Shown in pieces: positions 1,219 through 35,100 of a stretch of 64,000 nt of DNA (the first letter of the stretch is position 1; the number at the start of each line of letters is the position of its first letter). The DNA comes from a virus. Below the pieces are notes generated by a model. It searched no databases. It was not told the origin of the DNA and was given only the letters and a program-made list of their open reading frames with translations. The translations under genes and the position numbers were made by a program. Location of the stretch: IMG/VR virus record IMGVR_UViG_3300045988_174698, one strand, 5' to 3'.

Positions 1219-1689
1219 TTAATTCTGTTTAATATCTTCCTTTGGATTGATTACTGTTGCAGCAATATTAGCATAACAATCTGCAAGTTCATTAAATTTA
1301 TTATTATTGTGGCCTTTTAATCAAAAGAACTTTACTTTATGAAAGTGTAATAGATTAACTATTTTAACTCATAGATCCATATTCTTCTTTGAATTATCTT
1401 GCTCTGCAATTCATCTATATACATGACCATTGTTAATACTACTAACAATATAACTTGAATCAGAATATATTTCTAAATTCCTAGGTTCCTTAAAATATTC
1501 TAAGGAGTATAGAACTCCCATTAATTCTGCTCTATTGTTAGTAGTATGTATATAACCTTGATATAAAATCTTAATTACTTTGTTGTCCTCAGTAATTATA
1601 GAGGCATAACCCCCTTGGTCTGTTGTTGGTTTGTAACTTCCATCAGTATAGATTCTAATCATCAATAATTTCAGCATCGTCAAACTCAA
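1219..1689 (-). CDS. rnhA: ribonuclease HI, with three in-frame TGA codons read as Trp
   Basis: Track ORF 1411..1689 has DGS...GGY...TNNRAEL (RNase H motifs) and ends at TGA. Reading through TGA continues to TAA at 1219 and recovers the conserved C-terminus FFW(TGA)LKGHNNNKFNELADCYANIAA (W-V/L-K-G-H...NE.AD.LA of RNase HI). Confidence 0.7.
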
Positions 1690-1812
1690 TAACTCTTATA
1701 GTTCCCTTAAAGGCAGCCTCTCTAGAAACTAGAAAGTTATTAAAATCTTCTATAAATGCATCTTTGTTTTTATCTTCTATACTAATATAACCATTAAAAA
1801 TGATGTCAACCA

Positions 1813-2193
1813 TTACTCAACAAAATAATTGGAATTAAAAAGCTTAGGATTATGTCTTTTTAAAAGTTTCTTCTCCTTTTCTATCATAATACTCATGACT
1901 TCATCAGCATAGTCATTTCTACGACCTCCAAAGTTTTCAATAACATGAAACGGATTCTCTAAAGCATTACGCTCAGCAATCTTTCGACCAATAGCTTTAT
2001 TAAAGTTATCTACAGGCTGACATACTGCAAGTCCAAACTTAATAGTATGACTATTATCATCATAAACTGCAGCTATAGTATACCTACGACATGGTTTAAC
2101 ATCATAAACAACAGTTTTCTCAATAATAGGATTCACAGAAACAGTGCCTTGATATACAGGAGCACTGTAATAATACTTAACTACTCTACTCAT
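1813..2193 (-). CDS. hypothetical protein
   Basis: 126-aa ORF from track. Confidence 0.5.
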   Translation of the reverse strand: MSRVVKYYYSAPVYQGTVSVNPIIEKTVVYDVKPCRRYTIAAVYDDNSHTIKFGLAVCQPVDNFNKAIGRKIAERNALENPFHVIENFGGRRNDYADEVMSIMIEKEKKLLKRHNPKLFNSNYFVE

Positions 2194-2230
2194 ATCTTTC
2201 TTATTTTTTTATGATTTACATTTTAAATTG

Positions 2231-2479
2231 TTACTTCCTAGAAAGCTTACACCTCCATTTTTCTAGATTTTTACCAAATCTAGCATCAAATATATAATCA
2301 CAGTAACTATAATCATTAACTATTGTTCTAGGATTAGGAATATTACAATCAAAGTCTTTATCTTGAAGTTTAAAAAAATTACTTTTTAAGTAATTCTTTA
2401 TTCTTCTTTTAACAATTCGATGATAAATATTCTTTATACCTTTATCCTTGTAAACTGGAACCTTATAACTCTTTGACAT
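2231..2479 (-). CDS. hypothetical small basic protein
   Basis: 82-aa ORF, Lys/Arg rich. Confidence 0.4.
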   Translation of the reverse strand: MSKSYKVPVYKDKGIKNIYHRIVKRRIKNYLKSNFFKLQDKDFDCNIPNPRTIVNDYSYCDYIFDARFGKNLEKWRCKLSRK

Positions 2480-2501
2480 ATTAAGATAATATTAAATATA
2501 A

Positions 2502-3050
2502 TTAAGTTACTATATTTTTCATAAATGATATTCTAGCAATGTTTCGTAAATCACTAGATAATACTTTAACAACTATATCTTGTCGGCCATTTCTTTGATA
2601 ATAAGTATATAAAGACCTAGACTTATCTATACTCTTATTTGTTACCTTAGAATCAATTAGTTTAATTATGTCAGTTCGTCTACATACAATTCAATCTTTC
2701 TCTCCTTCAAATGCTATATAATCAGCCTTTCCAAATAGTCATCCAGGATTTCCTCGAACATTTTTTAGTTCTACTCAGTTGATATTATAATCTGGAGTAT
2801 TATCAGCTCTACGATTTTTTTTTGCGCTCTTGATGTCAAATGTAAAAGTTCTATTATTATATGTTCATATAATATCAATATGATCATACATATCTTGATA
2901 CTTAGATGGAATCTGAACAGTTCCTCCAACCTGAGATAGTAACAATTCAGAAAACTCAGATTCTTTTATCTTTCCTAATTTAGAGCAATCTATATATTTA
3001 TTCATAATTGTGACCCCATTTTTCAGCTTCTTCAAATGTACTAAAAACAA
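2502..3050 (-). CDS. hypothetical Trp-rich protein, TGA-recoded
   Basis: Track ORF 2865..3050 terminates at TGA. The frame continues through about 7 TGA codons to TAA at 2502..2504 (about 182 aa; ...SRKSWMTIWKGWLYSIW... uses both TGG and TGA). Confidence 0.45.
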
Positions 3051-3261
3051 GATATTCTGGAATCATTGTTACTATATCTTCAAAAGCATAAAATATATGA
3101 GGACCAGAATCTAAATATGAGACTATAATATCCTTAACTGTTCTAGGAGTAGTATCTACAGTATAAGTATCTACAAAAACTCCTGCTTCAAATTGATGGG
3201 TCTTTTGACAAATAAATACTGTCTGCCCAATATCAAATTTGGTTTCTATACTAATTTTCAT
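2998..3261 (-). CDS. hypothetical protein
   Basis: 87-aa ORF, TAA stop; start overlaps the downstream gene. Confidence 0.45.
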   Translation of the reverse strand: MKISIETKFDIGQTVFICQKTHQFEAGVFVDTYTVDTTPRTVKDIIVSYLDSGPHIFYAFEDIVTMIPEYLVFSTFEEAEKWGHNYE

Positions 3262-3262
3262 T

Positions 3263-3871
3263 TTAGTTATCTATTATTTCAATATATCTCTGTTTAGGAG
3301 TAGTAACGTAAGGATTTTGATCTATAATAATAACTTCTATAACAGTATGTTTTCTAGTAAACCATCGTGGTAGAAACCATTTTCGTGGTTTAATAGGTTC
3401 TTTATGAGAACTTAGAGTTATATACTTTTCATTATTATACTCATTACTTAAAGCTATTGTTCCTGGATAGGAAAGGTGTAGACAACTTCTGTTTCATTTA
3501 TCTACAATACAAGTATCTAACACAAACCCAGGTTCTCTAAATATTGTATCTCTAATAACAATAGTATCTTTCTTAGAAAAATGTTCTAATTGATATTGTA
3601 ACGCTTTAATTTTATTATCCTTAACTTTGTTCTCATTAGCTACTTTTTTCATTTTAAGCATTAAAGAATCGCTAAAGTATTCTAATTGCTCAATTGAAAG
3701 CTTAAATACACGATTACTTTCTTTTAATCATGAATTTTCCGCAGCATATGCTTTTTCATTATTTATAGAATTATCTAACGCAATATTCAGATTTCTAATT
3801 TTATTGGTCATAAAAATTATAGCCAATACAAGTAAAGTATAACTTAATATTCTTAAAATTATTTTTTTCAT
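3263..3871 (-). CDS. hypothetical membrane-anchored protein, TGA-recoded
   Basis: ATG at 3871 overlaps the TAA of the upstream gene (TAATG). N-terminal hydrophobic helix MKKIILRILSYTLLVLAIIF. Two in-frame TGA. TAA at 3263. About 202 aa. Plus-strand ORF 3627..3842 is its shadow. Confidence 0.5.
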
Positions 3872-4224
3872 TATATTAATTCTCTGTTAAAAGTTGAAAC
3901 TACAAAACTTCGGAATAGAATTAAATCTTCTAGAGCATTATCTAACGATGCTACTTGTTTTTTAACTCTTAAATATTTTTCAGTAATAATTTGTATAATA
4001 TTTTTAATATCTCTAATAGAACAAGGATCGTATTCAAACATACATAATCTTCTATTTAAAACACCAATAGGCTCATTTGTTAAAATTATAGGAATTCTCT
4101 TGTTAGATTGAATTTTTATAACAAAAGGAATAGATCCAAGGTCTACTAATAATTTTAGATATCTTATATCTACATTATTTGGAAATATAAATCCTGCCTG
4201 TTTAAGATTTCTAGTAATTAACAT
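3871..4224 (-). CDS. hypothetical protein
   Basis: 117-aa ORF from track. Confidence 0.5.
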   Translation of the reverse strand: MLITRNLKQAGFIFPNNVDIRYLKLLVDLGSIPFVIKIQSNKRIPIILTNEPIGVLNRRLCMFEYDPCSIRDIKNIIQIITEKYLRVKKQVASLDNALEDLILFRSFVVSTFNRELI

Positions 4225-4267
4225 AGTATTAAAAAATAAGGCATTAGAAAACTAATGCCTTAATATT

Positions 4268-4837
4268 TTATTGTTTATTAACAGTGTATCCATGATGTTC
4301 TAAAACTAGTTTACATAAGTTTAAGTACTCTTCTACAGTTAAATCACTTTTAGAATAATTAGCTGCAGGAGTTGTAATACCTAAATTTGATAAATCATTC
4401 GACCCGCCTTTAGAAACTGGTATTATATGATCAAAACAATAATCATCTTTTTCTAAATCAATAGGAGTGCCTGTTAAATAGCACTTTGTTTTTGTGCCAA
4501 ATTTATTAATAATATCTAAAGTCTTAATTTTATTTAAACTCTTCATTCCTCTATTTTGAAAATGTTCAATATATCTCCTTAAACGTTTACGTCATGTTCT
4601 ATTAGAGATTCTTCTACATCCATGAGAGATTCTAGCACAAAAAGTACATAGTCTAGATTTAATTCTCCCCTTAAGTGTATTACGTCATAATGAAGTAGAT
4701 TTTCGTTGTTTACTATTAGTTATATCATTACAATAATATCCAACAATACTTTTGCTACATCCAAGTATCTTAGCAATTTCATTATAACTTTTATTATCAC
4801 TTCTTAAAATAAGAATTTGTTCCTTTAACTTACTCAT
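4268..4837 (-). CDS. HNH homing-endonuclease-like protein with N-terminal HTH, TGA-recoded
   Basis: ATG at 4837; two in-frame TGA (W); TAA at 4268 (189 aa). N-terminus SYNEIAKILGCSKSIVGYY is an HTH. C-terminus CYLTGTPID...DHIIPVSKGGSNDLSNL is an HNH motif. Lies immediately 3' of the intron-containing tRNA. Confidence 0.65.
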
Positions 4838-4851
4838 AATCAACTTATTAG

Positions 4852-5289
4852 CACGAGCTCTCCGATTCGAACAGAGACCGTAGGGTTTGGAGCCCTACAA
4901 TACGGTTTTGCTTACCACTATAGTTTTCACTACCAGTTTTACTGTTTGTAGTCTGGACTATATCAGCTTGATATACAAGTGTGGCATTTAGTCTCTACAC
5001 ATTTATAGAGTAAAGTAGGATACATAGAGAAGTGTACGGCTTTAATTTTCGACCTACTAAGCACTCCGCCTATTTTACACGGCATAAACAGCCTATGTTC
5101 TCTACTGTATTTTACTCTAATTTAGCTCGGTATTATCAGCTATCCATATTTCAGGACCTTAGACTTTCTTAGAAAGCTGATTCGCATGATTTTTATCATC
5201 TTATTTCGCTTTTACCGAATTTGCCACAATTTTCACGCCAAGCGTGCTCCAATTCGAAGACCGCTGTGCTACCATTACACTAAGCTCGC
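4852..5289 (-). tRNA. tRNA gene interrupted by a group I intron; spliced product predicted about 92 nt with anticodon UCA (opal-reading, Trp-type candidate) and a long extra arm
   Basis: 5' exon 5257..5289: GCGAGCT-TA-GTGT-AATGGTA-GCAC-A-GCGGT-CTT. 3' exon 4852..4910: CAAA-ACCGT-[ATTGTAGGGCTCCAAACCCTACGGT]-CTCTG-TTCGAAT-CGGAG-AGCTCGT-G. The only junction satisfying group I rules (5' exon ends in U, intron ends in G) gives anticodon loop CUUCAAA. Anticodon stem GCGGU/ACCGU is formed exon-to-exon. Alternative reading of the extra arm as a CCA anticodon arm is noted in findings. Confidence 0.55.
4911..5256 (-). mobile_element. group I intron (ORF-less, about 346 nt) inside tRNA gene at anticodon position 34/35
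   Basis: Minus-strand core elements: R-like GTGTAGAGACTAAATG (plus 4985..5000) and S-like GATATAGTCCAGAC (plus 4951..4964) in the correct order, pairing GACTA/TAGTC (P7). No ORF in either orientation. Flanked by tRNA halves. Confidence 0.6.
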
Positions 5290-5358
5290 ATTTATTATCT
5301 TTAGTTATACAGCAAAGATAACAAAAATCTGTGAACAATCAAAAATTTAATTAACAAA

Positions 5359-6564
5359 TTATAAAGAAAATTTGCGAATTTTGGTTAAATAAATCTCTTT
5401 ACGATATTGGTTAACTCCACCATAGTCACCATAACTCATCTGCACTTTACGAAGATGGTATAGCTTACCTCCCTCTAATTTTAATTTATCTGCTATATCC
5501 TTTGGAAAAGTAAAATCAATAACCTTGTCAACTGTTATTTTTTTATAGTTACTATCCTTTGAATTTATAACATATATTAAGAAAGCACTTAATATAAGCA
5601 GGTACCACTTAATTTCAGAGTAATCTGTAGTGGGTCTTAAAAATCTGAATTCTACAGTTTTATGGGCATCACCTGAAATTAAATGCATTATATTCATATT
5701 AAAATATCTACCGTGCACTTCCCACTTACGCTCCTCTGTTGAATCATATGAATTAGGTAAATAAAAACTTTGGTCATCATTATACTTATTACCAGTGAAC
5801 CTTTTGTAGAATGTAGGGAGAGATGCAATACTCGGAAAAGGTTTATTGTAAGCTTTACCATTACTTTTATAGCGTTCTGTATAGTAACTATATCTTGGTA
5901 TGTACATACTAATAGACCATTGAAAATGGCACCAGAACTTACACAGACGATTAATATAACTATTATTAATTGGAAAGTTACCAAAATGAATATGCAAAGA
6001 GCAGTTTTTATCGTAAAACGTGTATCTTTCAAGCAGTTTCAAATGCTGTTTAATAATAGGTAAATCTATATGTGTTAATGGAAAAGTTACATATTCATGC
6101 CCATTAATTGAACCATCATACAGTGGTACTAGATTTGTATCAATACAACTTAACCAAGGTATGTTTCCTGCGGATGTTTCATATTCAAGGCCAAAGGTAA
6201 AGTCTTCAATATATGTAAATTCTTTATCAGGTATTAATTTAATATACTTAGGTTTTAAAGATAGTTTTGAAAAATTGTAACATCTATCTATTGGATAATT
6301 AAACACATATTTAGAATCTGTAATGATATTATTAGATAGTTTTAAATCTATCGTATAGCAACAAATATTATTTACCCAATATAATGGTATTTTGCAGTTC
6401 TCGCGTCTTTCCAAATAGGTAATTTTCCCTTCTATTACTAGAGGAATATTTAGTGGGTCTATTTCAAAATAACCATATTCTATATATGCGTAATCAATAT
6501 AGATCACACCTCTTAGTAAGGTATCTCCAGTTTCCCACCTTTTTTTAGTATTATTGTACAGCAT
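5359..6564 (-). CDS. COOH-NH2 amidoligase (glutamine-synthetase-fold, amidoligase_2-like)
   Basis: 401-aa ORF. Motifs GLEYETS, SLHIHFG and VEFRFL match the GxExE...HxH...EFR pattern of phage amidoligases. All Trp encoded by TGG, no TGA. Confidence 0.55.
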   Translation of the reverse strand: MLYNNTKKRWETGDTLLRGVIYIDYAYIEYGYFEIDPLNIPLVIEGKITYLERRENCKIPLYWVNNICCYTIDLKLSNNIITDSKYVFNYPIDRCYNFSKLSLKPKYIKLIPDKEFTYIEDFTFGLEYETSAGNIPWLSCIDTNLVPLYDGSINGHEYVTFPLTHIDLPIIKQHLKLLERYTFYDKNCSLHIHFGNFPINNSYINRLCKFWCHFQWSISMYIPRYSYYTERYKSNGKAYNKPFPSIASLPTFYKRFTGNKYNDDQSFYLPNSYDSTEERKWEVHGRYFNMNIMHLISGDAHKTVEFRFLRPTTDYSEIKWYLLILSAFLIYVINSKDSNYKKITVDKVIDFTFPKDIADKLKLEGGKLYHLRKVQMSYGDYGGVNQYRKEIYLTKIRKFSL

Positions 6565-7873
6565 CTAAATTAACAAGTCTATTAGTTATAAACTGTAAAA
6601 TCTGTGTTTCTAGTACTTCAAAATCGAATGTTGTATTTTCTGCATTATTCTTGAAAATTTCAAAAGCGCTAGGAGCATAGGTATATGTTGTAGAACTTAC
6701 TCCATCTTTTACATTAACTTTATCAGGAGCATTAAATAGAGTAACATATGATCCTTCCATGTACTTCATATAATTGAAGTCTTTGTCAACAGTAGTTAAG
6801 ACACCATTAATAATTCGAGGATTATATGCAAAGTAATCAATAACTTCGGGACAATAAACAGAAAGAACATCATTTGTAAAAAGGTCATCTATATTTTCAA
6901 GGAAATCATAACTTTCTTTATTGGGTAACAATCGCCCATAGAAGAAGTAGAAAGTATGTCTATATGCGTTAGAGCTGGCATATGCTTCGGGTACTAAATG
7001 CCCAGAAGGATAAGCTAGATACATACCGTGTGCTGGAATTTCATTTAACATATACGTACCTGTAGTTTGACTGTAATATAAGTTATTAGAGGTATATGCT
7101 GGGGAATTATCCTTATAAGAAGCACCATATACTGGTATGCAAAGGGTTCTCCTTAATTTTTCACGATTAATATTTCTAATACAGTAAACCTTGTTATCCT
7201 TAATTCGGCATAACTTATTTACAGGAAATTCATAGATTGTTTTTTTACAGTTGATGGAATATAGAGAAGCATACATCGACGAAAAATAAAGTTTACCCTC
7301 GTTAATCATATAAACTAAAGGTCGCTCAGATTTTGTTTTGTTTTCATTATAACAAGAGCTCCCTTTGAACATGAGTACTTCTGGAGTCAAAGATCTATAA
7401 TCTACCATTATAAGAACAGCACAACCTGTATATTCTTCTAGAACATCATATCCATGTTCATAAATAATTTCTGCCAAAATTTGAGAATCAGACATACCAA
7501 GAGTATTAGGTTCTGGAAGATATTTATTAGATAATTCTCCAATATTAAGAATAGTACCATTATGCATTAGTACAAACTCAATTTTGTTACCACGTCTAAT
7601 AACAACTGGCTGAGCCTGATCTAAATTCACAGGATATCCAGGAGAGGCCTTTCGACAATGTAATAAAGCAATAGAAGCTGACTTTGGATAATTTATACTA
7701 GTAGTAAAGTTCCTAAATAATTTTCTGTCACTGACTCCATATTCTACCTTACCATCAATAAAAATACCACAACTATCTCCCCCTCTTTCATCGTTTAGGG
7801 TTCCAAGTATATTAAAGTGGTTTATGTTAAATTCAGTCTTTTCAGTAGAAATTATTCCAGCTAGTCCGCACAT
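6551..7873 (-). CDS. class II (Ntn) glutamine amidotransferase domain protein with long C-terminal extension
   Basis: 440-aa ORF beginning MCGLAGI (catalytic Cys2 of GAT-II/Ntn hydrolases). Contains no Trp codon at all. Confidence 0.55.
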   Translation of the reverse strand: MCGLAGIISTEKTEFNINHFNILGTLNDERGGDSCGIFIDGKVEYGVSDRKLFRNFTTSINYPKSASIALLHCRKASPGYPVNLDQAQPVVIRRGNKIEFVLMHNGTILNIGELSNKYLPEPNTLGMSDSQILAEIIYEHGYDVLEEYTGCAVLIMVDYRSLTPEVLMFKGSSCYNENKTKSERPLVYMINEGKLYFSSMYASLYSINCKKTIYEFPVNKLCRIKDNKVYCIRNINREKLRRTLCIPVYGASYKDNSPAYTSNNLYYSQTTGTYMLNEIPAHGMYLAYPSGHLVPEAYASSNAYRHTFYFFYGRLLPNKESYDFLENIDDLFTNDVLSVYCPEVIDYFAYNPRIINGVLTTVDKDFNYMKYMEGSYVTLFNAPDKVNVKDGVSSTTYTYAPSAFEIFKNNAENTTFDFEVLETQILQFITNRLVNLDAVQ

Positions 7874-8652
7874 ATTCCATAAAGTTTAATTAGATGTTCT
7901 GCCAGTACTTTATTAGATGTATTAATACACTTTTGAACTAAATCTCCTTCTGGCAAAGGAAATCCTTCATTAAACATATCTACAGCTAACATAGTTTGTT
8001 TATAAATCATTGGAAGGTATTTGTCATTAAGCATAAAGCTACTTAGACATCTTGCTTCTACTCCCCACTCAGGACAACGGAAACTTCCTGCTTGACCATA
8101 TAGAGTTCTTCTAAAAGTATCTCTATCATATAATACAGAAGGAACTCCACAGCATAGATCAAAGAACTTAATAAGCTTAACAGATGTATCAAAATTAGGG
8201 TTATCATATCCTATGTGAATGTGTGAACCTGCCACTCTTCTATTATCAGGATAACCTTGTGGCTTATCGTTTTCACACTCTGTATAAGCATCATAATCAC
8301 TAGAACATCCAATTTCATTTGCTTTAGGATCAAGTAATTGATCTTCAGGCACGGGCATAGATGCACTACAACAAATATCAAGATTGTTATCGAATTGTTT
8401 AACCCAATTACGAATCCAATCTTTCATATATTTAATAGAATCTACAAATTCATTACTAGAAGTACAAGGTGGGATATTAAATTCTCCTAAAATACAGTCA
8501 ATCTCCACACCAAATCCTTTTGGCATGCCTTTAGTATATGGTTTACCTTTTTCTCCTGGAATTATTCCAATTGCAGATACTACTTGGTTTGTTTTTGTAT
8601 TAAAAATAAATAACTCGGGGTCTGCTCCAACTGTAATATTTTTAATTTTCAT
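7861..8652 (-). CDS. hypothetical protein, possible second amidoligase/GCS2-like enzyme
   Basis: 263-aa ORF. N-terminal GADPELF and internal GSHIHIGYD are loosely amidoligase-like. Overlaps neighbours by a few nt, consistent with an operon. Confidence 0.4.
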   Translation of the reverse strand: MKIKNITVGADPELFIFNTKTNQVVSAIGIIPGEKGKPYTKGMPKGFGVEIDCILGEFNIPPCTSSNEFVDSIKYMKDWIRNWVKQFDNNLDICCSASMPVPEDQLLDPKANEIGCSSDYDAYTECENDKPQGYPDNRRVAGSHIHIGYDNPNFDTSVKLIKFFDLCCGVPSVLYDRDTFRRTLYGQAGSFRCPEWGVEARCLSSFMLNDKYLPMIYKQTMLAVDMFNEGFPLPEGDLVQKCINTSNKVLAEHLIKLYGICAD

Positions 8653-9289
8653 CTGCTATTAATTTATCAATTATTTCATTTATTCTTATAACAATTGGTG
8701 ATTCAGGTCTCATATATTCAGGATGTCCTTGGATAGCCAAACACTTTGGAAGATTTGGTCTGTCATACAAAACAATTTCAGGTTCACAAGGAGGAGACAT
8801 AACATTATCTCCCTCATATATACTTGACCGATGACTAGTTGAATAAAACAAACATGTCCAATACTTATATGGTATTATAAATGGATACTGCATTTGATGG
8901 TGTGTACTGGTAATTTCATACATTTTATTCGTACTTATCTCTGTAATAGAGTGAGTTATTCGAATAGCATGATTTTCCACATTCTGAATAAGTATGCCAC
9001 CATTCATAATACATAAATATTGACTGCCTCGGCAGATCCCCACAGCTAACTGATCAGGTCTGATTTTCTCAAATTCTTTCTTTTCTGCGAGATCCCTTTG
9101 TAAATTAGCACAAGTAGTAGGATGAGGTTTACAGTTATACAAAGAAGGGTGTACATCTTCTCCACCTGTAAAAATAACAATATCTGCATCGTTAATATCA
9201 TCTACTAGCTCACGCTTAGTAATAAAATTAGCATAGTGTACTTGATTACCAACGACATATACTTTTTTTGTTTTTAGCATAGTATTCAT
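8642..9289 (-). CDS. class I glutamine amidotransferase-like / gamma-glutamyl hydrolase-like protein (putative)
   Basis: 215-aa ORF. ADIVIFTGGEDVHPSLY resembles GATase1/peptidase C26 nucleophile-elbow context. Weak. Confidence 0.4.
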   Translation of the reverse strand: MNTMLKTKKVYVVGNQVHYANFITKRELVDDINDADIVIFTGGEDVHPSLYNCKPHPTTCANLQRDLAEKKEFEKIRPDQLAVGICRGSQYLCIMNGGILIQNVENHAIRITHSITEISTNKMYEITSTHHQMQYPFIIPYKYWTCLFYSTSHRSSIYEGDNVMSPPCEPEIVLYDRPNLPKCLAIQGHPEYMRPESPIVIRINEIIDKLIADEN

Positions 9290-9944
9290 TCGCTATAAAA
9301 TTAATTCCCTTGACAATTTGAGGTAATTGCTTCGAGTTAAATACTCGAAGCAAATGGCACAAACTATTATGTTCAGCCATAATCCTACAAAAACTTTCAC
9401 TATAGTTAAAGTCCCTTCTAATTAAATTAAACTGGCACTTAGGATTAATGTTATAAAATGTTAGGTTATCTAATCCTGGGCAATGACATCTTCTTCCATC
9501 ATGAAACAATGTAATATAAAGTTGCATAATTTGAGTAATATCCAATTCTGGAAAGTTTGCTCTATTTTGCCATGCAGAGTATAATAATAACCAAAACGGA
9601 TTTTCGTATACATATCTAATATACATAGCACTATAGACAAAGAATCTATTGTCAGGAGCACACCTAATTTGTAATTTGTATGAATGTGTACTCTTTACAA
9701 GTGATATTAATGTAAACCCCAGTAGTCTTGAGATTTCCTTAAAGTACTCAATTAATGTTTTCGTATCAAATGTACAGTAGTTAAGCTGAACTTGTCTACT
9801 TCGAGGCCATATAATAGTAGCATAATAATAACCATTAAATTCACCTTGAGAACATCCCCTACTAAAACAAGCCATATTTTCATAAAAGTAATTACCAGCA
9901 TAGTAATTACATTTATATTCTTTTCCTCTAAAATCTAGTATCAT
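9246..9944 (-). CDS. hypothetical protein
   Basis: 232-aa ORF, Cys/Tyr-rich. Confidence 0.45.
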   Translation of the reverse strand: MILDFRGKEYKCNYYAGNYFYENMACFSRGCSQGEFNGYYYATIIWPRSRQVQLNYCTFDTKTLIEYFKEISRLLGFTLISLVKSTHSYKLQIRCAPDNRFFVYSAMYIRYVYENPFWLLLYSAWQNRANFPELDITQIMQLYITLFHDGRRCHCPGLDNLTFYNINPKCQFNLIRRDFNYSESFCRIMAEHNSLCHLLRVFNSKQLPQIVKGINFIANEYYAKNKKSICRW

Positions 9945-10671
9945 AGTACTTTTTTAAATGATTCCCATAATAAGTTATCCCAAAAGAAGCCAGAGAAGGA
10001 GCTGTATTACTTTCAACAATGATATAACTATTATCACTACACAATATATCAAAGCAGGCAATTGTGAGGTCCATTTGTTTTAATGCCTTAATACAATCAC
10101 TAATTATATTTTCCCAACATACAGGTAATTTGTGTTCCTCTGTTACTAAAACAAATATTGAATTATCAGCATGTTTATGCCATTGTACTTCAGCGTCTTG
10201 TTTCAGCACTTTTTTACAAGCATAAAAACAACCATGATGAACATCAATATGTACTCTATATTCATTTGGGAAGAAGTAATACTTTTCAAACACGAAATCC
10301 CTTATATTAACATTATTACATAGATCGTCTAAAGATTTGGGATTATCAATATAATAAATATTCTTCCCTTTCGATGAATGTTTATGTTTTGCTATAAGAA
10401 TTTTGTGCTGCATAAAAAACTTATAAATGCTTGCTTTGTTAGAAGAACTAATCCATTCACTATGAGATACACCCGCTTTGTCAAAGGCACGCTTCATTAA
10501 TATTTTATTCCCAGAAGTTTTAACTCCCTCTATAGTATTAATTTCCAAATATTTATATTTAGAAATTAAAGGAGTTGTGCTCCCTAAACGTAGTAGTACT
10601 CTTTGATTAAAAGGTATACTACGTAAAGGAGCACAACTTGTATTTGGACTGAAAACTCGAAGTTTTAACAT
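9928..10671 (-). CDS. ATP-grasp-like ligase (putative)
   Basis: 247-aa ORF. C-terminal ...FDILCSDNSYIIVESNTAPSL resembles the ATP-grasp E-x-N Mg-binding loop. Confidence 0.4.
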   Translation of the reverse strand: MLKLRVFSPNTSCAPLRSIPFNQRVLLRLGSTTPLISKYKYLEINTIEGVKTSGNKILMKRAFDKAGVSHSEWISSSNKASIYKFFMQHKILIAKHKHSSKGKNIYYIDNPKSLDDLCNNVNIRDFVFEKYYFFPNEYRVHIDVHHGCFYACKKVLKQDAEVQWHKHADNSIFVLVTEEHKLPVCWENIISDCIKALKQMDLTIACFDILCSDNSYIIVESNTAPSLASFGITYYGNHLKKYYDTRF

Positions 10672-10672
10672 A

Positions 10673-11215
10673 CTATAGTTCTAATGCCTTATTATAGCAG
10701 TACACAGCCAGTTCCTTCTGGGTTAACTTATTATAATCAGCAAATTCAGCCCCATGGTCCTGTAAAAGCTTTGCAATATACTGTAGTTCGTGTTTTTTTA
10801 GTTTGCTAAATTGAGTGGCCGAGAATTCTGCGACCTTCTTATCAAGAGCAATTAATTTGAGGAATACTTTTCCAAATGGTTTATTATTAAATTTATTAAT
10901 ATATACCTTTTGGTCAATATTATCCTCTACTGGGATAGCTTTAGGTTCAGGGTTAGGAACAACCTCGTCATATGGGATAATCATAAATTCAGGTACCCAT
11001 ATGCCTATAGATAGAAAATATGGAATATCTGGGTCATTCTTATCTACATCCTCAATAACAGCAACATTACCAAAATAGGGAAAATCAGAAAATAAGACAT
11101 ATTTCATGTCTTTGTTACAATAAACACCTTCTAAGTCAGGTGCTTCCTTGAGTAGATTATCCTTAAGTAAACAATCAAGATTTTTAATGATAACTTTGTC
11201 TCCTTGTTCAAACAT
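10673..11215 (-). CDS. hypothetical protein
   Basis: 180-aa ORF. Confidence 0.5.
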   Translation of the reverse strand: MFEQGDKVIIKNLDCLLKDNLLKEAPDLEGVYCNKDMKYVLFSDFPYFGNVAVIEDVDKNDPDIPYFLSIGIWVPEFMIIPYDEVVPNPEPKAIPVEDNIDQKVYINKFNNKPFGKVFLKLIALDKKVAEFSATQFSKLKKHELQYIAKLLQDHGAEFADYNKLTQKELAVYCYNKALEL

Positions 11216-11229
11216 AACTATTTTTATTT

Positions 11230-12306
11230 TTATTTGAAAAATGATAAATATTCTAATGGACTAACAATTCTATATTTAGTCTTTCTAAACTCTAAAAGGT
11301 CAAAAGAATCTGAATAACTCATCATTGACCTTAAGTAGTCAACGAAATTTTCACACCAATCTTGTAACTTATACAAAACTGGAACTGTGGTTTCAATACC
11401 CTCAGCAGTTTTGAGTTTTTGGTTTCCTATTTCTATCTGTGCTTTTTTAGTAGACATACCATAGTATTTACGTCTGAGTCCTAGATTTGGATCTGTAACA
11501 GGTAGTAACTCTCCACAGGCTTCTTGAGATTGTGCAAAGAGTTTTCCAACCATTACATAATCAGCTCCAAGAGCTAGTGCTTTAATAATCTTATCATAAT
11601 TATCAAATCCTCCGTCCGCAATAATAAATGGAACACTTTTGTATGGATGAGTTATTGAGTTACAACCCAAGTAAAAACCAGAGTCACCCGCTATATTAAC
11701 TACTTTTGTTTCTTCAATACATTTTTCTATAGCCCGCTTTTTATCAACAACTTCCTTAATTAAGGAAGCCATTGCATAGTGTATTCCACCATTAGCAGAA
11801 GTAGTACATACAGAACCTCCCCCTACACCTATCCGTACAAAATCAATTCCTGCTAGTGAATAATCAGCATAAGTATCAGGGTTAGCAATATTGCCCGCCA
11901 TTAATGACAATCGACCTCCAAATATAGACTTTGCTTGTGAGCATAAATCAATTAACTTTAACATGTGGCCATTAGCAATATCAACACACACATAACGAAT
12001 ATCATTGGTGGTATCATATATATTTTCAAAATCTGTAATAAATCTTTCAAACTCAGATAAGCCAAGTGCAACAAACGTACTTGTAGACAACTCCCATCGT
12101 TTATCATAATCTACTCCTCTTGGAATAATTGTATTGATCTTATTTCTAAGAAAAACTTCATAATTATTCTCATTAATAACAGAATTCATAGGAGCAGTAA
12201 ATAACGGCAGCATACCATCAAAGTTATATGGATTACAGTCTGCACGATGTTCTATTCTACTGGTTCTAGCTGGTACTAAACAAATATCATTTAACCCATA
12301 TGTCAT
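11230..12306 (-). CDS. IMP dehydrogenase / GMP reductase family TIM-barrel oxidoreductase (GMP-reductase-like, no CBS insert)
   Basis: 358-aa ORF. GVGGGSVCTTSANGG (catalytic Cys loop) and IADGGF...GADYVMVG motifs of the IMPDH/GuaC family. Confidence 0.6.
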   Translation of the reverse strand: MTYGLNDICLVPARTSRIEHRADCNPYNFDGMLPLFTAPMNSVINENNYEVFLRNKINTIIPRGVDYDKRWELSTSTFVALGLSEFERFITDFENIYDTTNDIRYVCVDIANGHMLKLIDLCSQAKSIFGGRLSLMAGNIANPDTYADYSLAGIDFVRIGVGGGSVCTTSANGGIHYAMASLIKEVVDKKRAIEKCIEETKVVNIAGDSGFYLGCNSITHPYKSVPFIIADGGFDNYDKIIKALALGADYVMVGKLFAQSQEACGELLPVTDPNLGLRRKYYGMSTKKAQIEIGNQKLKTAEGIETTVPVLYKLQDWCENFVDYLRSMMSYSDSFDLLEFRKTKYRIVSPLEYLSFFK

Positions 12307-12479
12307 TTTTAATCTCTCTTAATTAGTTTATTTTTCTGTTCCTCAGTATCCCTAAATTTTTTTATTTTTCTTTTCTTATTTAGACGAGCAATCTCTTCCT
12401 CGTACCTATTATATTTATCCAATTGATTACCTCGAATAAATTTACCCATGATAAAAAACAGAATTTCAATTTTGATTTA

Positions 12480-13262
12480 CTATTGAATCTCTAAAGTACC
12501 TGGTTCCAGTCCAAGTTCTTTCTCGACTTCTGCGATTGTTTTCTTTACAACCTTATTCTTTACTTTTGGCCAAGCAACATCCATTTTTGTGTAATCACTA
12601 AGTTTAAAACAGTGTGGTGTTGGAACAAAAATCTTCTTAACTTGGTAGAAACTCCCATTTTTAGGGGAATTAAAGCATCCACTTAAATAACCCTTAATTT
12701 CTCCTTTATTGTTAACATAAACAATAGCTTTAGAAGAAATAATAAATCCAAAATACTCTTGATCTTTAACTATTAACTGTACTATTCGCCCAGGTAAAAA
12801 CTCAGACTTAAAATCATTATTAAGATTAGAATCTACCTTATTATCCTCAACCTTATTTTTTTCTTTACCTAGAATCTTTTCAAACTGGTCTATAATAGAT
12901 ATGTCATTTGATTTTAATTCAGGTGATTCAAGTAATTTTAATAGATTCTTTTCTGATTTTAAAATAATATCACTATATAGAGCAAGTTTATTCTCTTCTA
13001 TATCATTAATACCTAACTCTTTAAGGATAGTGTTGTCATCATCTGAACAGAAGATATCACTATCTCCAGTAAGGTAATGAATATTCTGATTATATGTAAC
13101 AACATAATAAGATCTTTTATCTGTATCAATTAAGATCTTATAAGGGTGTCCTGAAAGTAATAAAGATATACTTACCTTAGGATAGTTTAATGTATATCCG
13201 TATCTACTTAAGATAAACAAAATGGTATTTAAACTGTTACCATTATATAATAAATAACGCAT
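12480..13262 (-). CDS. hypothetical protein
   Basis: 260-aa ORF. Confidence 0.5.
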   Translation of the reverse strand: MRYLLYNGNSLNTILFILSRYGYTLNYPKVSISLLLSGHPYKILIDTDKRSYYVVTYNQNIHYLTGDSDIFCSDDDNTILKELGINDIEENKLALYSDIILKSEKNLLKLLESPELKSNDISIIDQFEKILGKEKNKVEDNKVDSNLNNDFKSEFLPGRIVQLIVKDQEYFGFIISSKAIVYVNNKGEIKGYLSGCFNSPKNGSFYQVKKIFVPTPHCFKLSDYTKMDVAWPKVKNKVVKKTIAEVEKELGLEPGTLEIQ

Positions 13263-13315
13263 AATTTGATTTTTTTGTTCTTTTTAGTTAAAAAACAGTA
13301 ACAAGTGAAGGCTCA

Positions 13316-14248
13316 CTATTCTTTTACTTCTATAATTTTATATACAGAATTTTGAGTATGAAAATGATTTTTATCTACGATTTTAGTTACAGGTGAGGTT
13401 GAGAAGCGAAATCCAAGACAAGCTCGAAACCCTACAGTTATAGGTAGACTTAAATATCCTTGAGTAAGGTACCCTTTATTGATTCCATTTGGATGATGAC
13501 CTGGCTTATAATTACAAGTATCAGTATCTTCTAACTTTTCAATCTGAACTTTAGTTTGTGCAGGATAACTACACACCTCATAATATAATTCACGTACACT
13601 CCTCAAAGTTTCCTCATGGTGATCATCTGATTCAGGTATTGATCCTTCACAATCACATTTCTTTAATAGTAGTAATGCTTCGAAGTCAATACACTCTAGA
13701 TTATTAGCTAACCTTAGAATAGCCGACTTGATATCTCTTTGTTTTAAAATATAAAGAGGTTGCATGTGACACCTTACCAAAGAAAGAATAGCTCTTTTGT
13801 ACTGAGGTTTAATATCAGAAATATATGTATCTAAAATATGTTCAGCAATTGGAACTCCTTTAATTGCATGGTCCTTACAGTGGTAAAGTCCATCTTCTCC
13901 CTTTTTTGTAGTAACTGGTTTACCTATATCATGTAATAGAGCAGCAAAGATTAGAATATTTCGATAGTCCATGTCTTGAAAAAGTACTTCATTACTGTTT
14001 TCAATATGCTTCAACATACATTTTGTAACCATACAAGTATGGGTGAAAGCGTCTCCCTCTTTATGCCAAAGTATATTCTGAGGAGTTTCTGACAACGCTT
14101 TAAATTCAGGAATTTTTAAAAGTTCATCCCAAAAGACAATATTAGTTTTTGGATCATAAATCATATTATATAATAAGATTATAAGAGATAATAGTAGTAA
14201 CAAATAAAATAGCTGAAGATTTTGCAAAATGTATAAAAGTTGAATCAT
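13316..14248 (-). CDS. HD-domain phosphohydrolase with N-terminal transmembrane segment
   Basis: 310-aa ORF. AALLHDIGKP and HCKDHAIKG are the H...HD...D metal-binding motifs. Hydrophobic N-terminus. Confidence 0.55.
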   Translation of the reverse strand: MIQLLYILQNLQLFYLLLLLSLIILLYNMIYDPKTNIVFWDELLKIPEFKALSETPQNILWHKEGDAFTHTCMVTKCMLKHIENSNEVLFQDMDYRNILIFAALLHDIGKPVTTKKGEDGLYHCKDHAIKGVPIAEHILDTYISDIKPQYKRAILSLVRCHMQPLYILKQRDIKSAILRLANNLECIDFEALLLLKKCDCEGSIPESDDHHEETLRSVRELYYEVCSYPAQTKVQIEKLEDTDTCNYKPGHHPNGINKGYLTQGYLSLPITVGFRACLGFRFSTSPVTKIVDKNHFHTQNSVYKIIEVKE

Positions 14249-14645
14249 AATCCGACATTATTAGAGATCCTATAGTAATTGCAAATAAAAGGGCAATTGA
14301 CACTATAAAAATATCTCTATACACTTTGTATGTTTTGTTATTAGATACTACCCACCCTTTAAGTTTATATGTTAATATAACACCAGGTTTGTTATGGTAT
14401 ATATGGTAATCTTCTGGAGTAGCCTCAAAACTAAGTATTTTATTAGTTTTTATATCTTTTGCAATAAGATACATCTTACCATTAGTTTTATAGCCTCCAG
14501 ATATCTTTTCTCCTCCTATAATCTCACATTGATATGGATTAGTATTTACATAGTTACTAAATTCAGAGTAATGTAGATTCAAACTTATAAGTATAACTAC
14601 TATAGAAGGAACCCAATAAGCTAAAATTTTAGAAGGTATATCCAT
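14166..14645 (-). CDS. hypothetical membrane protein
   Basis: 159-aa ORF with N- and C-terminal hydrophobic helices. Overlaps the HD gene start by about 80 nt. Confidence 0.4.
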   Translation of the reverse strand: MDIPSKILAYWVPSIVVILISLNLHYSEFSNYVNTNPYQCEIIGGEKISGGYKTNGKMYLIAKDIKTNKILSFEATPEDYHIYHNKPGVILTYKLKGWVVSNNKTYKVYRDIFIVSIALLFAITIGSLIMSDYDSTFIHFAKSSAILFVTTIISYNLII

Positions 14646-14646
14646 T

Positions 14647-15069
14647 TTATATCCATGTCTTTAAAGCTTCCAAAAAAGCTGATTCTAAAGCTTCTTCATA
14701 TGTATTATAATCTACTCCACTTGCATCTATACTATGAGGAGGTCTTACAATTTTCTTAGAAGGATCTATCTGAATATCAACGATTTTATATGTCCAATAT
14801 CCATGAATAGTGGGAACTATTATAATATGTATCTTATGAATATCTCTTAACCATTTTTGAAGTTTAGATTGAGTTGGAGCTAAATAATAATTATCTGTAG
14901 GATCATAAAACTTACAATTCCAAAGCACTCCTTTTTCATCATAACAAGGGCTACAATTTACATATCCTAATTTTGGAAATAGTTTAGATATTCTATTTCC
15001 ATCCATATAATGTTTTTCCTTTGCAAGTTTAGCAGTATCAAAAGTAATATGTGATTCCATTATTCCCAA
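14647..15069 (-). CDS. hypothetical protein (paralog family with 32750..33118)
   Basis: 140-aa ORF. N-terminus HITFDTAKLAKEKHY matches HYNTAKLAKEKGY of ORF 32750..33118. Confidence 0.5.
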   Translation of the reverse strand: MGIMESHITFDTAKLAKEKHYMDGNRISKLFPKLGYVNCSPCYDEKGVLWNCKFYDPTDNYYLAPTQSKLQKWLRDIHKIHIIIVPTIHGYWTYKIVDIQIDPSKKIVRPPHSIDASGVDYNTYEEALESAFLEALKTWI

Positions 15070-21887: not shown

Positions 21888-21907
21888 AAGTTAAAAAGAT
21901 TTTTGTG

Positions 21908-21950
21908 TGGCTGATGAGAATTGAACTCATGTCCATTCAACTATTAATAA
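21908..21950 (-). pseudogene. orphan tRNA 3' fragment (T arm plus acceptor 3' strand)
   Basis: Minus-strand ATGAG-TTCAATT-CTCAT-CAGCCAC-A. No complementary 5' acceptor (GTGGYTG) within 700 nt upstream. Confidence 0.35.
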
Positions 21951-22643
21951 TAATTTTATTTACATGCTAGGTTATTTTATTCTCCTATTCCGAAAAATAA
22001 CAAAACGTATCAGATAGTTTTTATCTTATCTCCTACAACTTATCTGAAATAACTCGGTTCTATAATAGTAGTTAGTAATGATTAACTTACATCATCTGCA
22101 TTAATCTATACAGAAAATCTTTGTCTATTATTTCTCCAGACTTGGATAGCTTAAGCTGCAAAAGCTACTTGAGCACGCATAGGAGTTGCAAGAGGCATAA
22201 CCTTGTTAGCCATCTTACGTACAGTGTTCTTAGCGTTTATTTTTTGGTCCAGTTGTTAAAGAAGTTATACCAGCTCCTGCATGAATTGTTATCAACTATC
22301 TTGAATGTCAAAAACCTGGCAGGCCCAAAGACAGGGCAGTTTATACTTATACCCTAGAAGTGGTCCATAATAGCTAAAGTGTTTAATGCTCTAATTATAT
22401 AGCAGCGACTAGTATACTGTTATACTTTTCTTGTAACTTCAAGAACTATTACTAAAACTTCAATGTGAAGTTCCTAAAAGCCACTTGAGTATTTTTTGGG
22501 TTCACTCAAGAATACCGTGTTTTATTGTCGGGATCAAACAACCAAACTACCACCTTTCTATATACAAAGGCAAACTCATACTATCTGGCGTAACCCGTTA
22601 CTATTATTTATATACCGCTAAGTAACCTAATGCGGTTTACTTT

Positions 22644-34709: not shown

Positions 34710-34734
34710 GTAAAATAAATTTGTCTAATTGACA

Positions 34735-34857
34735 GGATTCGAACCTGCAGATGTTTTGATTAACACCACATATTGTTTCAATACAGCCAAATTAGTTTTC
34801 ATTTGACGAAGGGATATTAGTCCCTAGCGTATACCAATTCCGCCACAATTAAACAAA
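34735..34857 (-). other. aberrant tRNA-like locus (about 123 nt): tRNA ends with about 55 extra nt between anticodon-like arm and T arm
   Basis: 5' TTAATTG-TG-GCGG..., anticodon-like arm AGGGA-CTAATA-TCCCT (6-nt loop), then about 55 nt, then GCAGG-TTCGAAT-CCTGT and acceptor CAATTAG. No clean cloverleaf. Confidence 0.3.
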
Positions 34858-34989
34858 CTTATCTTTAACTTTAAAATGAAGGAGTGGGTGACTGTCACTC
34901 TAACAGTTACTAATACTAGTATAATGGCCTAGCAGCTCAGTGCCACAGTCTTCCGACACATTAGTAATGTATTTTTACTTCATCTTGCA

Positions 34990-35100
34990 GGTGTAACGGG
35001 ATTCGAACCAGACATACGATTCCCTCAAGAGTTCTCTCTTAGCGTATCTCCGAAGTTGCCACCTCGGTGTTTTACCATTAAACTATACACCTAAAACAAG
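34990..35100 (-). other. aberrant tRNA-like locus (about 110 nt) with about 40-nt nested-hairpin insertion in the variable region
   Basis: Acceptor AGGTGTA/TACACCT, D arm GTTT-AATGGTA-AAAC, hairpin CCGAGG-TGGCAA-CTTCGG, extra stem AGATACG...CGTATGTCT enclosing AAGAG-AGAA-CTCTT, weak T stem around TTCGAAT. Confidence 0.3.

Follow-up and report, generated by a model that had tools for sequence, protein, structure and literature searches.

Two halves of a transfer RNA (tRNA) lie 346 nt apart on the minus strand of the IMG/VR virus record IMGVR_UViG_3300045988_174698, within a 64,000-nt stretch of DNA (hereafter the window, 64 kb of a genome of probably 130–175 kb). They raise the question of which tRNA they form once joined, and which amino acid that tRNA would carry. 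We propose that this locus (4852–5289) is very probably a phage opal suppressor tRNA gene, which would translate UGA as tryptophan and is split between U34 and C35 by a 346-nt group I intron that lacks an open reading frame (ORF). The halves, their coordinates and the parts of each exon, described earlier in a sequence-only reading of this DNA, were recovered base for base, together with the R and S elements placed between them (GUAGAGACUAAA and GAUAUAGUCC, at positions 292–303 and 326–335 of the pre-tRNA). The longest ORF in the intron has 48 codons under either genetic code 11 or code 4, in line with the description of the segment as ORF-less. Default ARAGORN and Rfam scans of the window leave the split gene unlisted. 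They report 12–14 other tRNAs and a transfer-messenger RNA (tmRNA), and no tRNA-Trp(CCA) is among these tRNAs, as the same reading had stated.

Joining the halves at CUU|CAAA, between U34 and C35, yields a 7-nt loop CUUCAAA with the anticodon UCA. This junction had originally been chosen by the rule that the 5' exon ends in U and the intron in G, and both the junction and the anticodon are now backed by the pairing of the internal guide and by comparison with related loci. The guide UUGGAG is complementary to the ligated loop CUU|CAA (P1/P10); P1 is present in the minimum-energy fold, and the complementarity of UUG to CAA was read from the sequence. We assign the anticodon as UCA because homologues without an intron carry GGUCUUCAAAACC at the exact intron position, because all introns at this site sit between U34 and C35, and because of a presence/absence pair of loci, L280 with an intron of 186 nt and L133 with none, whose flanking DNA is about 96% identical. 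Spliced in silico, the gene gives a 92-nt RNA that ARAGORN calls as a tRNA with anticodon tca and whose minimum-energy fold is a five-arm cloverleaf (z = −3.6), the outcome anticipated for the spliced sequence. This RNA combines a 7-bp acceptor, a D arm, a 5-bp anticodon stem, a 7-nt anticodon loop with U33 and a purine at position 37, and a T loop with UUCGA. Across the family, the cloverleaf is 98.3% paired, compared with 72.5% in shuffles. The intron mode of ARAGORN finds the same outer borders and places the intron two bases further 3'. That placement, with a 9-nt loop and the anticodon cgc, was rejected: it breaks the rule of a U before the intron (U-1) and is contradicted by the intron-less homologues.

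With its P1–P10 helices, R/S core, terminal G and compensatory changes, the insert reads, as had been claimed, as a group I intron; it is of the kind found in the anticodon loops of bacterial tRNAs, and its fold is conserved. P1 joins C32, U33 and U34 to G10, A9 and G8 of the intron, with the U34–G8 wobble at the 5' splice site. This helix is unchanged across six relatives, and UGGAG was seen by eye in each of three intron lineages. An unconstrained fold of the 438-nt precursor recovers P1, P2, P3, P4 and P8 along with the tRNA arms (z = −3.35). When the structure is laid on the alignment of six relatives, 98.7% of cells are paired, compared with 32–39% in shifted controls, in a set that comprises three sequence clusters only and with a structure derived from the window sequence. 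Double changes are seen at fourteen pairs, most of them (nine) in the P6 extension; P3 and a small inner hairpin of the P9 domain contribute two each, and P9 one. The covariation signal is real and modest in depth. Variants in the P9 domain include ACCAC/GUGGU, ACUAC/GUAGU and CAGU-GAAA-ACUG, and P7, which is GACUA/UAGUC in the window, appears as GAGUA/UACUC and GAGU/ACUC in the sister lineages.

The Rfam comparison that the sequence-only reading had put forward as a check gave a full alignment with a low score. The Intron_gpI model (RF00028) aligns with the insert from end to end, including the R/S core, and its AGACUAAA and GAUAUAGUC elements are matched; the score of 18.5 bits (E = 0.031 in a local search of 751 nt) lies far below the threshold of 50 bits. 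At the gathering threshold, the split tRNAs of the window and ten related loci have no group I match, and the E-value mode, applied to four loci, gave no group I match in the split tRNAs either. The intron in a 286-nt tRNA-Arg of a Microcoleus phage likewise has no Rfam match, and the group I intron of the window's portal gene, which scores 67.1 bits locally, is missing from both whole-window Rfam scans. Because these two introns are also missed, we do not count the low score against the intron. Membership in subgroup IC3 is suggested by the type of host gene and by the similarity of the core to a phage tRNA-Arg intron; over 51 nt, the P7/P3'/P8 core matches the tRNA-Arg intron region of Microcoleus phage OR578706 at 84.6%.

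The codons that such a tRNA would read are abundant in the window, which has 31% G+C and in which treating TGA as sense extends the longest ORFs from 444 to 1090 codons. Their distribution is uneven. Genes at 5.3–15 kb use TGG and have no in-frame TGA, and ORFs at 44–64 kb and 1.2–4.8 kb contain up to 23 in-frame TGA codons, often with zero TGG. Late genes hold 10–23 TGA codons each, at tryptophan or aromatic columns of their alignments, and the recoded genes include those for the large terminase, the portal and an endolysin-like protein. In the alignment of the terminase with 17 homologues, W, or W/F/Y/L, occupies the ten columns at which the window has TGA. Two relatives carry TGG at some of these columns, and TGA where the window has TGG. 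Under code 4, ORF coverage gains +0.15 in loci with this type of tRNA and +0.04 in control loci. The two features of a code 4 suppressor, in-frame TGA at tryptophan positions and an anticodon complementary to UGA, are thus both present, and TGA is a tryptophan codon in this phage. The positions of TGA in late genes and its exchange with TGG between relatives support the opal-suppressor, Trp-type role first read from the anticodon.

The nearest named terminases are those of crAss-like phages, at about 30% identity, and the terminase homologues come from contigs of 150–175 kb and often carry inteins. The low-GC phage of the window is related to crAss-like phages and fits their intron-rich, code-switching zeta group (Yutin et al.). 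Many of the terminase homologues (P0006–P0013, P0041, P0042 and P0110) are 1,074–1,143 aa long, with intein or LAGLIDADG-type domains that are absent from the window copy.

The most unusual part of the tRNA is an extra arm between the anticodon and T arms, whose sequence is a copy of a tRNA-Trp CCA anticodon arm. The sequence-only reading had remarked on this resemblance, and it is borne out by the exact anticodon-arm dimensions of the arm and by its conserved UCCA loop. Relatives were gathered by exact-pattern scans of viral contigs that fixed the UCA arm or the D arm, and family sizes are lower bounds; another scan, with just the UCA arm and the T loop fixed, introduces no bias on the sequence between them. 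Three groups can be distinguished among phage UCA tRNAs: ordinary class I tRNAs, tRNA-Sec-like tRNAs, and a large Trp-like group with the long arm. UCCA is present in the arm of 58 of the 74 distinct long-arm UCA tRNAs, a set that pools spliced sequences and a few members from other scans, and most of the other 16 are Sec-like. The 53 tRNAs that could be parsed cleanly share one layout, in which the UCA arm is followed by a linker of 2–7 nt, an arm with a 5-bp stem and a 7-nt loop, a second linker of 3–5 nt (mostly NGGU) and the T arm. The loop of their extra arm follows the pattern NUCCANN (CUCCAAA in 31, GUCCAAA in 17, UUCCAAC in three and GUCCAUA in two). The stems of this arm, in contrast to its loop, come in 36 different sequences, with all five pairs changed on both sides. 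The earlier idea that the arm might be a relic is therefore unlikely, because in a relic the loop sequence would not survive so much stem turnover.

A scan of a genome collection returned mainly true selC genes whose variable-arm loop contains UCCAAA by chance, and in cellular genomes the Trp-like form was found on four small contigs of metagenome-assembled genomes only. A degenerate scan with CAAAACC-N8-14-CTCCAAA gave, among the matches listed, mostly chance hits and one useful homologue (L019).

The architecture looks like that of a tRNA-Trp with a duplicated anticodon arm, in which the first copy may have changed from C34 to U34. The major identity elements for bacterial tryptophanyl-tRNA synthetase (TrpRS) are the CCA anticodon and G73 (PMC9976931). 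G73, at 4852 in the window, is present in all 53 family members. The decoding arm has U34, C35 and A36, and the full CCA occurs only in the extra arm. Because the enzyme uses these two elements, we hypothesize, tentatively, that the CCA "pseudo-anticodon" arm acts as a signal for TrpRS and helps it to recognize a tRNA that lacks C34; this is the leading hypothesis for the arm. The arm might instead serve as a second decoding arm, bind another factor or act as a decoy.

The steps of splicing, charging by TrpRS and decoding, together with the role of the extra arm, we infer as follows. The precursor would be transcribed from the minus strand, and the guide UUGGAG would pair with exon CUU, the U–G wobble marking the 5' splice site, and then with CAA of the 3' exon. 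Guanosine attack and the terminal G of the intron (4911) would lead to joined exons with the loop CUUCAAA and the anticodon UCA, and end trimming and CCA addition would complete a tRNA of about 95 nt. This tRNA would offer G73, a Trp-like D arm, a Trp-like anticodon arm and the CCA-copy extra arm. The host TrpRS would charge it with tryptophan, aided in recognition by the CCA arm, and the charged tRNA would compete with release factor 2 to decode in-frame TGA in terminase, portal, lysin and tail genes.

Several points weigh against this account. Besides the Rfam score below threshold, the invariance of the UCA arm in the family arises by construction, from the scan patterns, and for the sequence type to which the window belongs, no allele lacking the intron was found. 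The acceptor of the window tRNA has G1–U72, C2–G71 and G3–C70, and the first two pairs differ from the A1–U72 and G2–C71 usual in bacterial tRNA-Trp; within the family, A1–U72 is found in 42 of 53 acceptors and G2–C71 in 38 of 53. The extra arm is not universally required, because about 19 distinct phage UCA tRNAs are of ordinary class I form without it. In addition, the tip of a variable arm is normally far from the site where TrpRS binds the anticodon, and a mimic would need an unusual geometry. Finally, another suppressor could exist outside the 64-kb window.

Other readings of the locus differ on which arm decodes, on the amino acid carried, and on whether the gene works at all. The CCA arm might be a second or even the true decoding arm, with one or the other arm stacked beneath the D stem and a single tRNA reading UGG through CCA and UGA through UCA, or the gene might be a tRNA-Trp(CCA) into which an intron-bearing hairpin was inserted. 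This idea draws on the anticodon-arm dimensions of the arm, on the 4-nt NGGU that follows it like a class I variable loop, with its final U opposite A15, and on the call of tRNA-Trp(cca) that ARAGORN makes once the UCA arm and the intron are deleted. Most likely, though, the UCA arm is the decoding arm, because it stands directly after A26 as in all tRNAs and because 19 of the 53 CCA-arm loops start with G. G at position 32 is very rare in working anticodon loops. The single nucleotide (A26) between the D stem and the UCA arm, against 2–7 nt between the two arms, favours stacking of the UCA arm. The phage, moreover, needs UGA decoding, and the host should supply a reader of UGG; decoding by the CCA arm is quite unlikely. 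A selenocysteine tRNA, or a serine-accepting long-arm suppressor, would give UGA the meaning Sec or Ser. The anticodon UCA, G73 and the long extra arm all suit such a tRNA, ARAGORN labels the spliced form tRNA-SeC, and the UCA-arm sequence GGUCUUCAAAACC is common to real selC genes. The helices tell otherwise. The acceptor/T helix is of the 7/5 type, and in the D arm the stem has 4 bp and the loop 7 nt. In tRNA-Sec, the helix would have 13 bp (8/5 in bacteria), the D stem 6 bp and the D loop 4 nt, and the true selC genes that the same scans picked up do show longer acceptors and D stems of 6 bp. Given also that TGA in late genes stands at tryptophan or aromatic columns and interchanges with TGG, a reading of UGA as Sec or Ser is barely credible.

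It could also be that the gene is dead, its intron no longer splicing and suppression being left to a tRNA elsewhere in the genome or in the host. The low Rfam score and the minor part of the genome that the window covers are compatible with this, but both exons remain intact and of canonical form, contigs from several different samples retain the split gene, and the differences among near-identical and distant copies lie in loops or preserve pairing, with compensatory changes in P3, P6 and P9. We regard a dead gene as very improbable. For a gene that does splice, the intron might serve as a regulatory timer, as proposed earlier: slow or conditional self-splicing would hold back the suppressor and thereby time the start of TGA read-through and of late-gene expression. 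The gene does lie at the border between a TGA-free block (5359–15060) and ORFs with in-frame TGA (1219–4837) on the same strand, and the late genes need the suppressor. Against such a device, closely related phages have the same tRNA without the intron, the site is shared by three unrelated lineages of introns, 186 to 707 nt long, and sister introns contain homing endonuclease genes. Such a pattern points to the turnover of mobile elements rather than to regulation that has been conserved, and a timer is unsupported and unlikely. We consider the intron most likely a selfish mobile element, a reading preferred because close relatives lack it and because sister introns carry homing-endonuclease genes.

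The distribution of introns at this site is broad. The split gene is found in at least 33 viral loci with at least 21 distinct introns, which belong to three lineages and all lie at U34|C35; all 21 of the distinct introns are preceded by U and end in G. Seven near-identical copies of the split gene were found, in addition to diverged intron-bearing homologues, and intron lengths at the site are 186, 341–360, 527–609, 629–633 and 706–707 nt. Neither the split gene nor the late-gene block has a close relative in the INPHARED phage collection, where only short matches to intron cores were seen. The longer sister introns have ORFs in the P1 loop, some of which encode PD-(D/E)XK proteins of PF11645, which we take to be the I-Ssp6803I family, and one type of which is HNH/EndoVII-like. 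In introns of 527–707 nt (L240, L246, L247, L261 and relatives), these endonuclease ORFs contain in-frame TGA, so their translation would depend on the suppressor tRNA that they interrupt. Mobile introns would thus have colonized a tRNA needed by their own TGA-containing endonuclease genes.

Two observations concern tRNA-Sec-like forms among the relatives. Eight UCA tRNAs with a CCA-loop arm (L323, L330, L335, L336, L307, L297, L295 and L348) have a long D arm, apparently with a 6-bp stem and a 4-nt loop like tRNA-Sec; their acceptor/T helix is still 7/5, and G73 is kept. A tRNA-Sec-like match in L240 was set aside, as it reads by eye as an ordinary tRNA-Ser(GCU).

Among known introns, the tRNA-Leu(UAA) intron of cyanobacteria and plastids (Leu.3Ug, subgroup IC3; for the site nomenclature and the IC3 assignment of classical tRNA introns, see 10.1101/2020.01.27.920355) is inserted at the same place, after U34 of a 5' exon that ends in CUU (CUU/...g/). 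The two introns have a short P1 with a U–G wobble, a terminal G and the lack of an ORF in common. They differ in host gene, which in the window is the putative phage opal suppressor (CUUCAAA) and not a cellular tRNA-Leu (CUUAAAA), and in size, the window intron being larger, with long P5 and P6 extensions and its 18.5 bits in Rfam. The introns of Azoarcus tRNA-Ile, of tRNA-Arg and of Synechocystis tRNA-fMet (I-Ssp6803I, PD-(D/E)XK) share recognition of the exon through three base pairs; compared with these bacterial introns, that of the window is ORF-less, and its tRNA and insertion site are different. The window intron is presumably similar to the Azoarcus sequence.

The suppressor tRNAs of recoded phages (crAss-like zeta, Agate, Jade and others) resemble the present case in low GC, in the use of TGA for tryptophan in late genes and in a phage-borne UCA tRNA. 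Many recoded phage genomes have no detectable suppressor, or possibly a divergent one; in published surveys one is detectable in only about one third of TGA-recoded phage genomes, and opal-recoded zeta crAss-like genomes without one are listed (10.1101/2021.08.26.457843; PMC7886860; PMC12386605). An intron in the suppressor gene and a CCA-loop arm are not described in those papers; the gene described here has both and is missed by default finders. Splitting by an intron is probably the reason that suppressors of this type frequently escape detection in recoded phages, and it offers a concrete, testable explanation for "missing" suppressors, one open to large-scale searches.

Class II tRNAs (Leu, Ser and bacterial Tyr) and tRNA-Sec also have an extra helix between the anticodon and T arms and a length of 90–95 nt. 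The tRNAs described here differ from them in their D arm and NGGU stretch, both of the class I form seen in tRNA-Trp, in their longer linkers (2–7 and 3–5 nt) and in the conserved UCCA loop. Seryl-tRNA synthetase reportedly reads the orientation of the variable arm more than its sequence (PMC7609411). An engineered "pseudo-anticodon" variable arm reportedly enhanced aminoacylation in work with allo-tRNA scaffolds and a histidyl-tRNA synthetase fused to an extra binding domain (Mukai 2020, PMC7590224). In that synthetic system, a copy of an anticodon stem-loop outside the decoding arm serves to attract the anticodon-binding domain of a synthetase, and mRNA mimics of anticodon arms that bind aminoacyl-tRNA synthetases likewise carry the copy outside a decoding arm. 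The arm described here is natural and phage-borne, with a putative role in synthetase binding, for which the synthetic arms of Mukai are the only precedent found. In open-access papers and bioRxiv, to which the search was confined, neither a phage suppressor tRNA with an intron nor an extra arm with a CCA loop turned up; with this coverage, a prior description may have been missed. Reviews of odd tRNAs list no such arm.

If the CCA arm recruits TrpRS, this unusual tRNA architecture would let a virus alter decoding and yet keep anticodon-dependent recognition by the synthetase. It would also be a natural template for the design of orthogonal suppressors, so far tried by engineering only. We find it plausible, though short of probable, that a natural "two-headed" tRNA, whose UCA arm reads a stop codon while its synthetase identity is uncoupled from decoding, and which is often hidden further by a mobile group I intron at U34|C35, is the "missing" suppressor of many TGA-recoded phages.

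Table 1. Parts of the split tRNA gene, its intron and the adjoining endonuclease gene, in window coordinates
Feature	Position	Strand	Sequence or remark
Split tRNA gene (pre-tRNA)	4852–5289	−	438 nt, from G1 to discriminator G73; CCA not encoded
5' exon	5257–5289	−	33 nt; GCGAGCU-UA-GUGU-AAUGGUA-GCAC-A-GCGGU-CUU
Acceptor, 5' strand	5283–5289	−	GCGAGCU
D arm	5266–5280	−	GUGU-AAUGGUA-GCAC, then A26
Anticodon stem, 5' strand	5260–5264	−	GCGGU
C32 U33 U34	5257–5259	−	
Intron	4911–5256	−	346 nt, no ORF; starts CGAAUUGGAG, ends GGUAAG; last base G 4911 = omega G
Internal guide	5247–5252	−	UUGGAG; GAG with exon CUU, including U34–G wobble (P1); UUG with CAA of 3' exon (P10)
P2 hairpin	5234–5246	−	CACGC-UUG-GCGUG
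P3, 5' strand	5222–5227	−	GUGGCA; partner 4981–4986; two pairs with compensatory changes
P4, 5' strand	5214–5219	−	UUCGGU; partner ACCGAG 5126–5131, P5 domain between
P6 and long peripheral extension	4998–5125	−	pre-tRNA 165–292; nine pairs with compensatory changes
P7, 5' strand	4989–4993	−	GACUA, inside R element; partner UAGUC; P3 pseudoknot
P3, 3' strand	4981–4986	−	UGCCAC
P8 hairpin	4967–4979	−	CUUG-UAUAU-CAAG
P7, 3' strand	4956–4960	−	UAGUC, inside S element
P9 domain	4914–4952	−	ACUAC/GUGGU around two hairpins, one with GAAA tetraloop
3' exon	4852–4910	−	59 nt; CAAA-ACCGU-AUUG-UAGGG-CUCCAAA-CCCUA-CGGU-CUCUG-UUCGAAU-CGGAG-AGCUCGU-G
C35 A36 A37 A38, then stem ACCGU	5' end of 3' exon (4852–4910)	−	
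Linker before extra arm	4898–4901	−	AUUG
Extra arm (Y)	4881–4897	−	UAGGG-CUCCAAA-CCCUA; copy of tRNA-Trp CCA anticodon arm
Linker after extra arm	4877–4880	−	CGGU
T arm	4860–4876	−	CUCUG-UUCGAAU-CGGAG
Acceptor, 3' strand, then G73		−	AGCUCGU; G73 at 4852
Helix-turn-helix (HTH) and HNH endonuclease gene, free-standing	4268–4837	−	189 aa, two in-frame TGA; starts 15 nt after the tRNA

The gene that follows the tRNA accompanies it in six of the seven near-identical loci, and a homologue with 42% identity lies just upstream of an intron-less dual-arm tRNA in L180. This suggests the HTH-HNH endonuclease as a possible driver of the mobility of the ORF-less intron or of the locus. On the other side, the motif CTTTGCTGTATAACTAAAG (5299–5317, minus strand) lies 10 nt upstream of the tRNA and contains an inverted repeat CTTT...AAAG. 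It occurs once in the window and is conserved upstream of the tRNA in L001–L007 and L019; its candidate roles are those of promoter, processing signal and terminator element. In a scan for promoters and terminators around the tRNA gene, no signal rose above background. The genes immediately upstream on the same strand form a cluster without in-frame TGA (5359–9289) that encodes an amidoligase, a glutamine amidotransferase, a phiEco32-like COOH-NH2 ligase and a peptidase C26. Beyond it, IMPDH/GMP-reductase-like and HD-domain proteins are encoded at 11230–12306 and 13316–14248.

Other RNA features of the window and its relatives lie further from the split gene. The portal gene is divided into two ORFs (57202–58380 and 58731–59768), and the gap between them holds a clear group I intron (58344–58686, plus strand) that is unrelated in sequence to the tRNA intron. 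Two over-long tRNA-like genes on the minus strand, of 105 nt (34988–35092) and 129 nt (34724–34852), attain the Rfam tRNA threshold weakly (34.7 and 32.8 bits) and are missed by ARAGORN. In the former, the acceptor and the D arm are Trp-like and G73 is present; the anticodon loop is odd, the extra arm spans about 36 nt and the T stem is poor. The tmRNA lies among the tRNA genes at 21905–22326 (minus strand; Rfam 52.3 bits, threshold 47), and the related locus L246 has one at 8122–8405. In L280, a related phage contig, a ROOL RNA (7618–8177, minus strand; Rfam 190 bits) stands beside the tRNA cluster.

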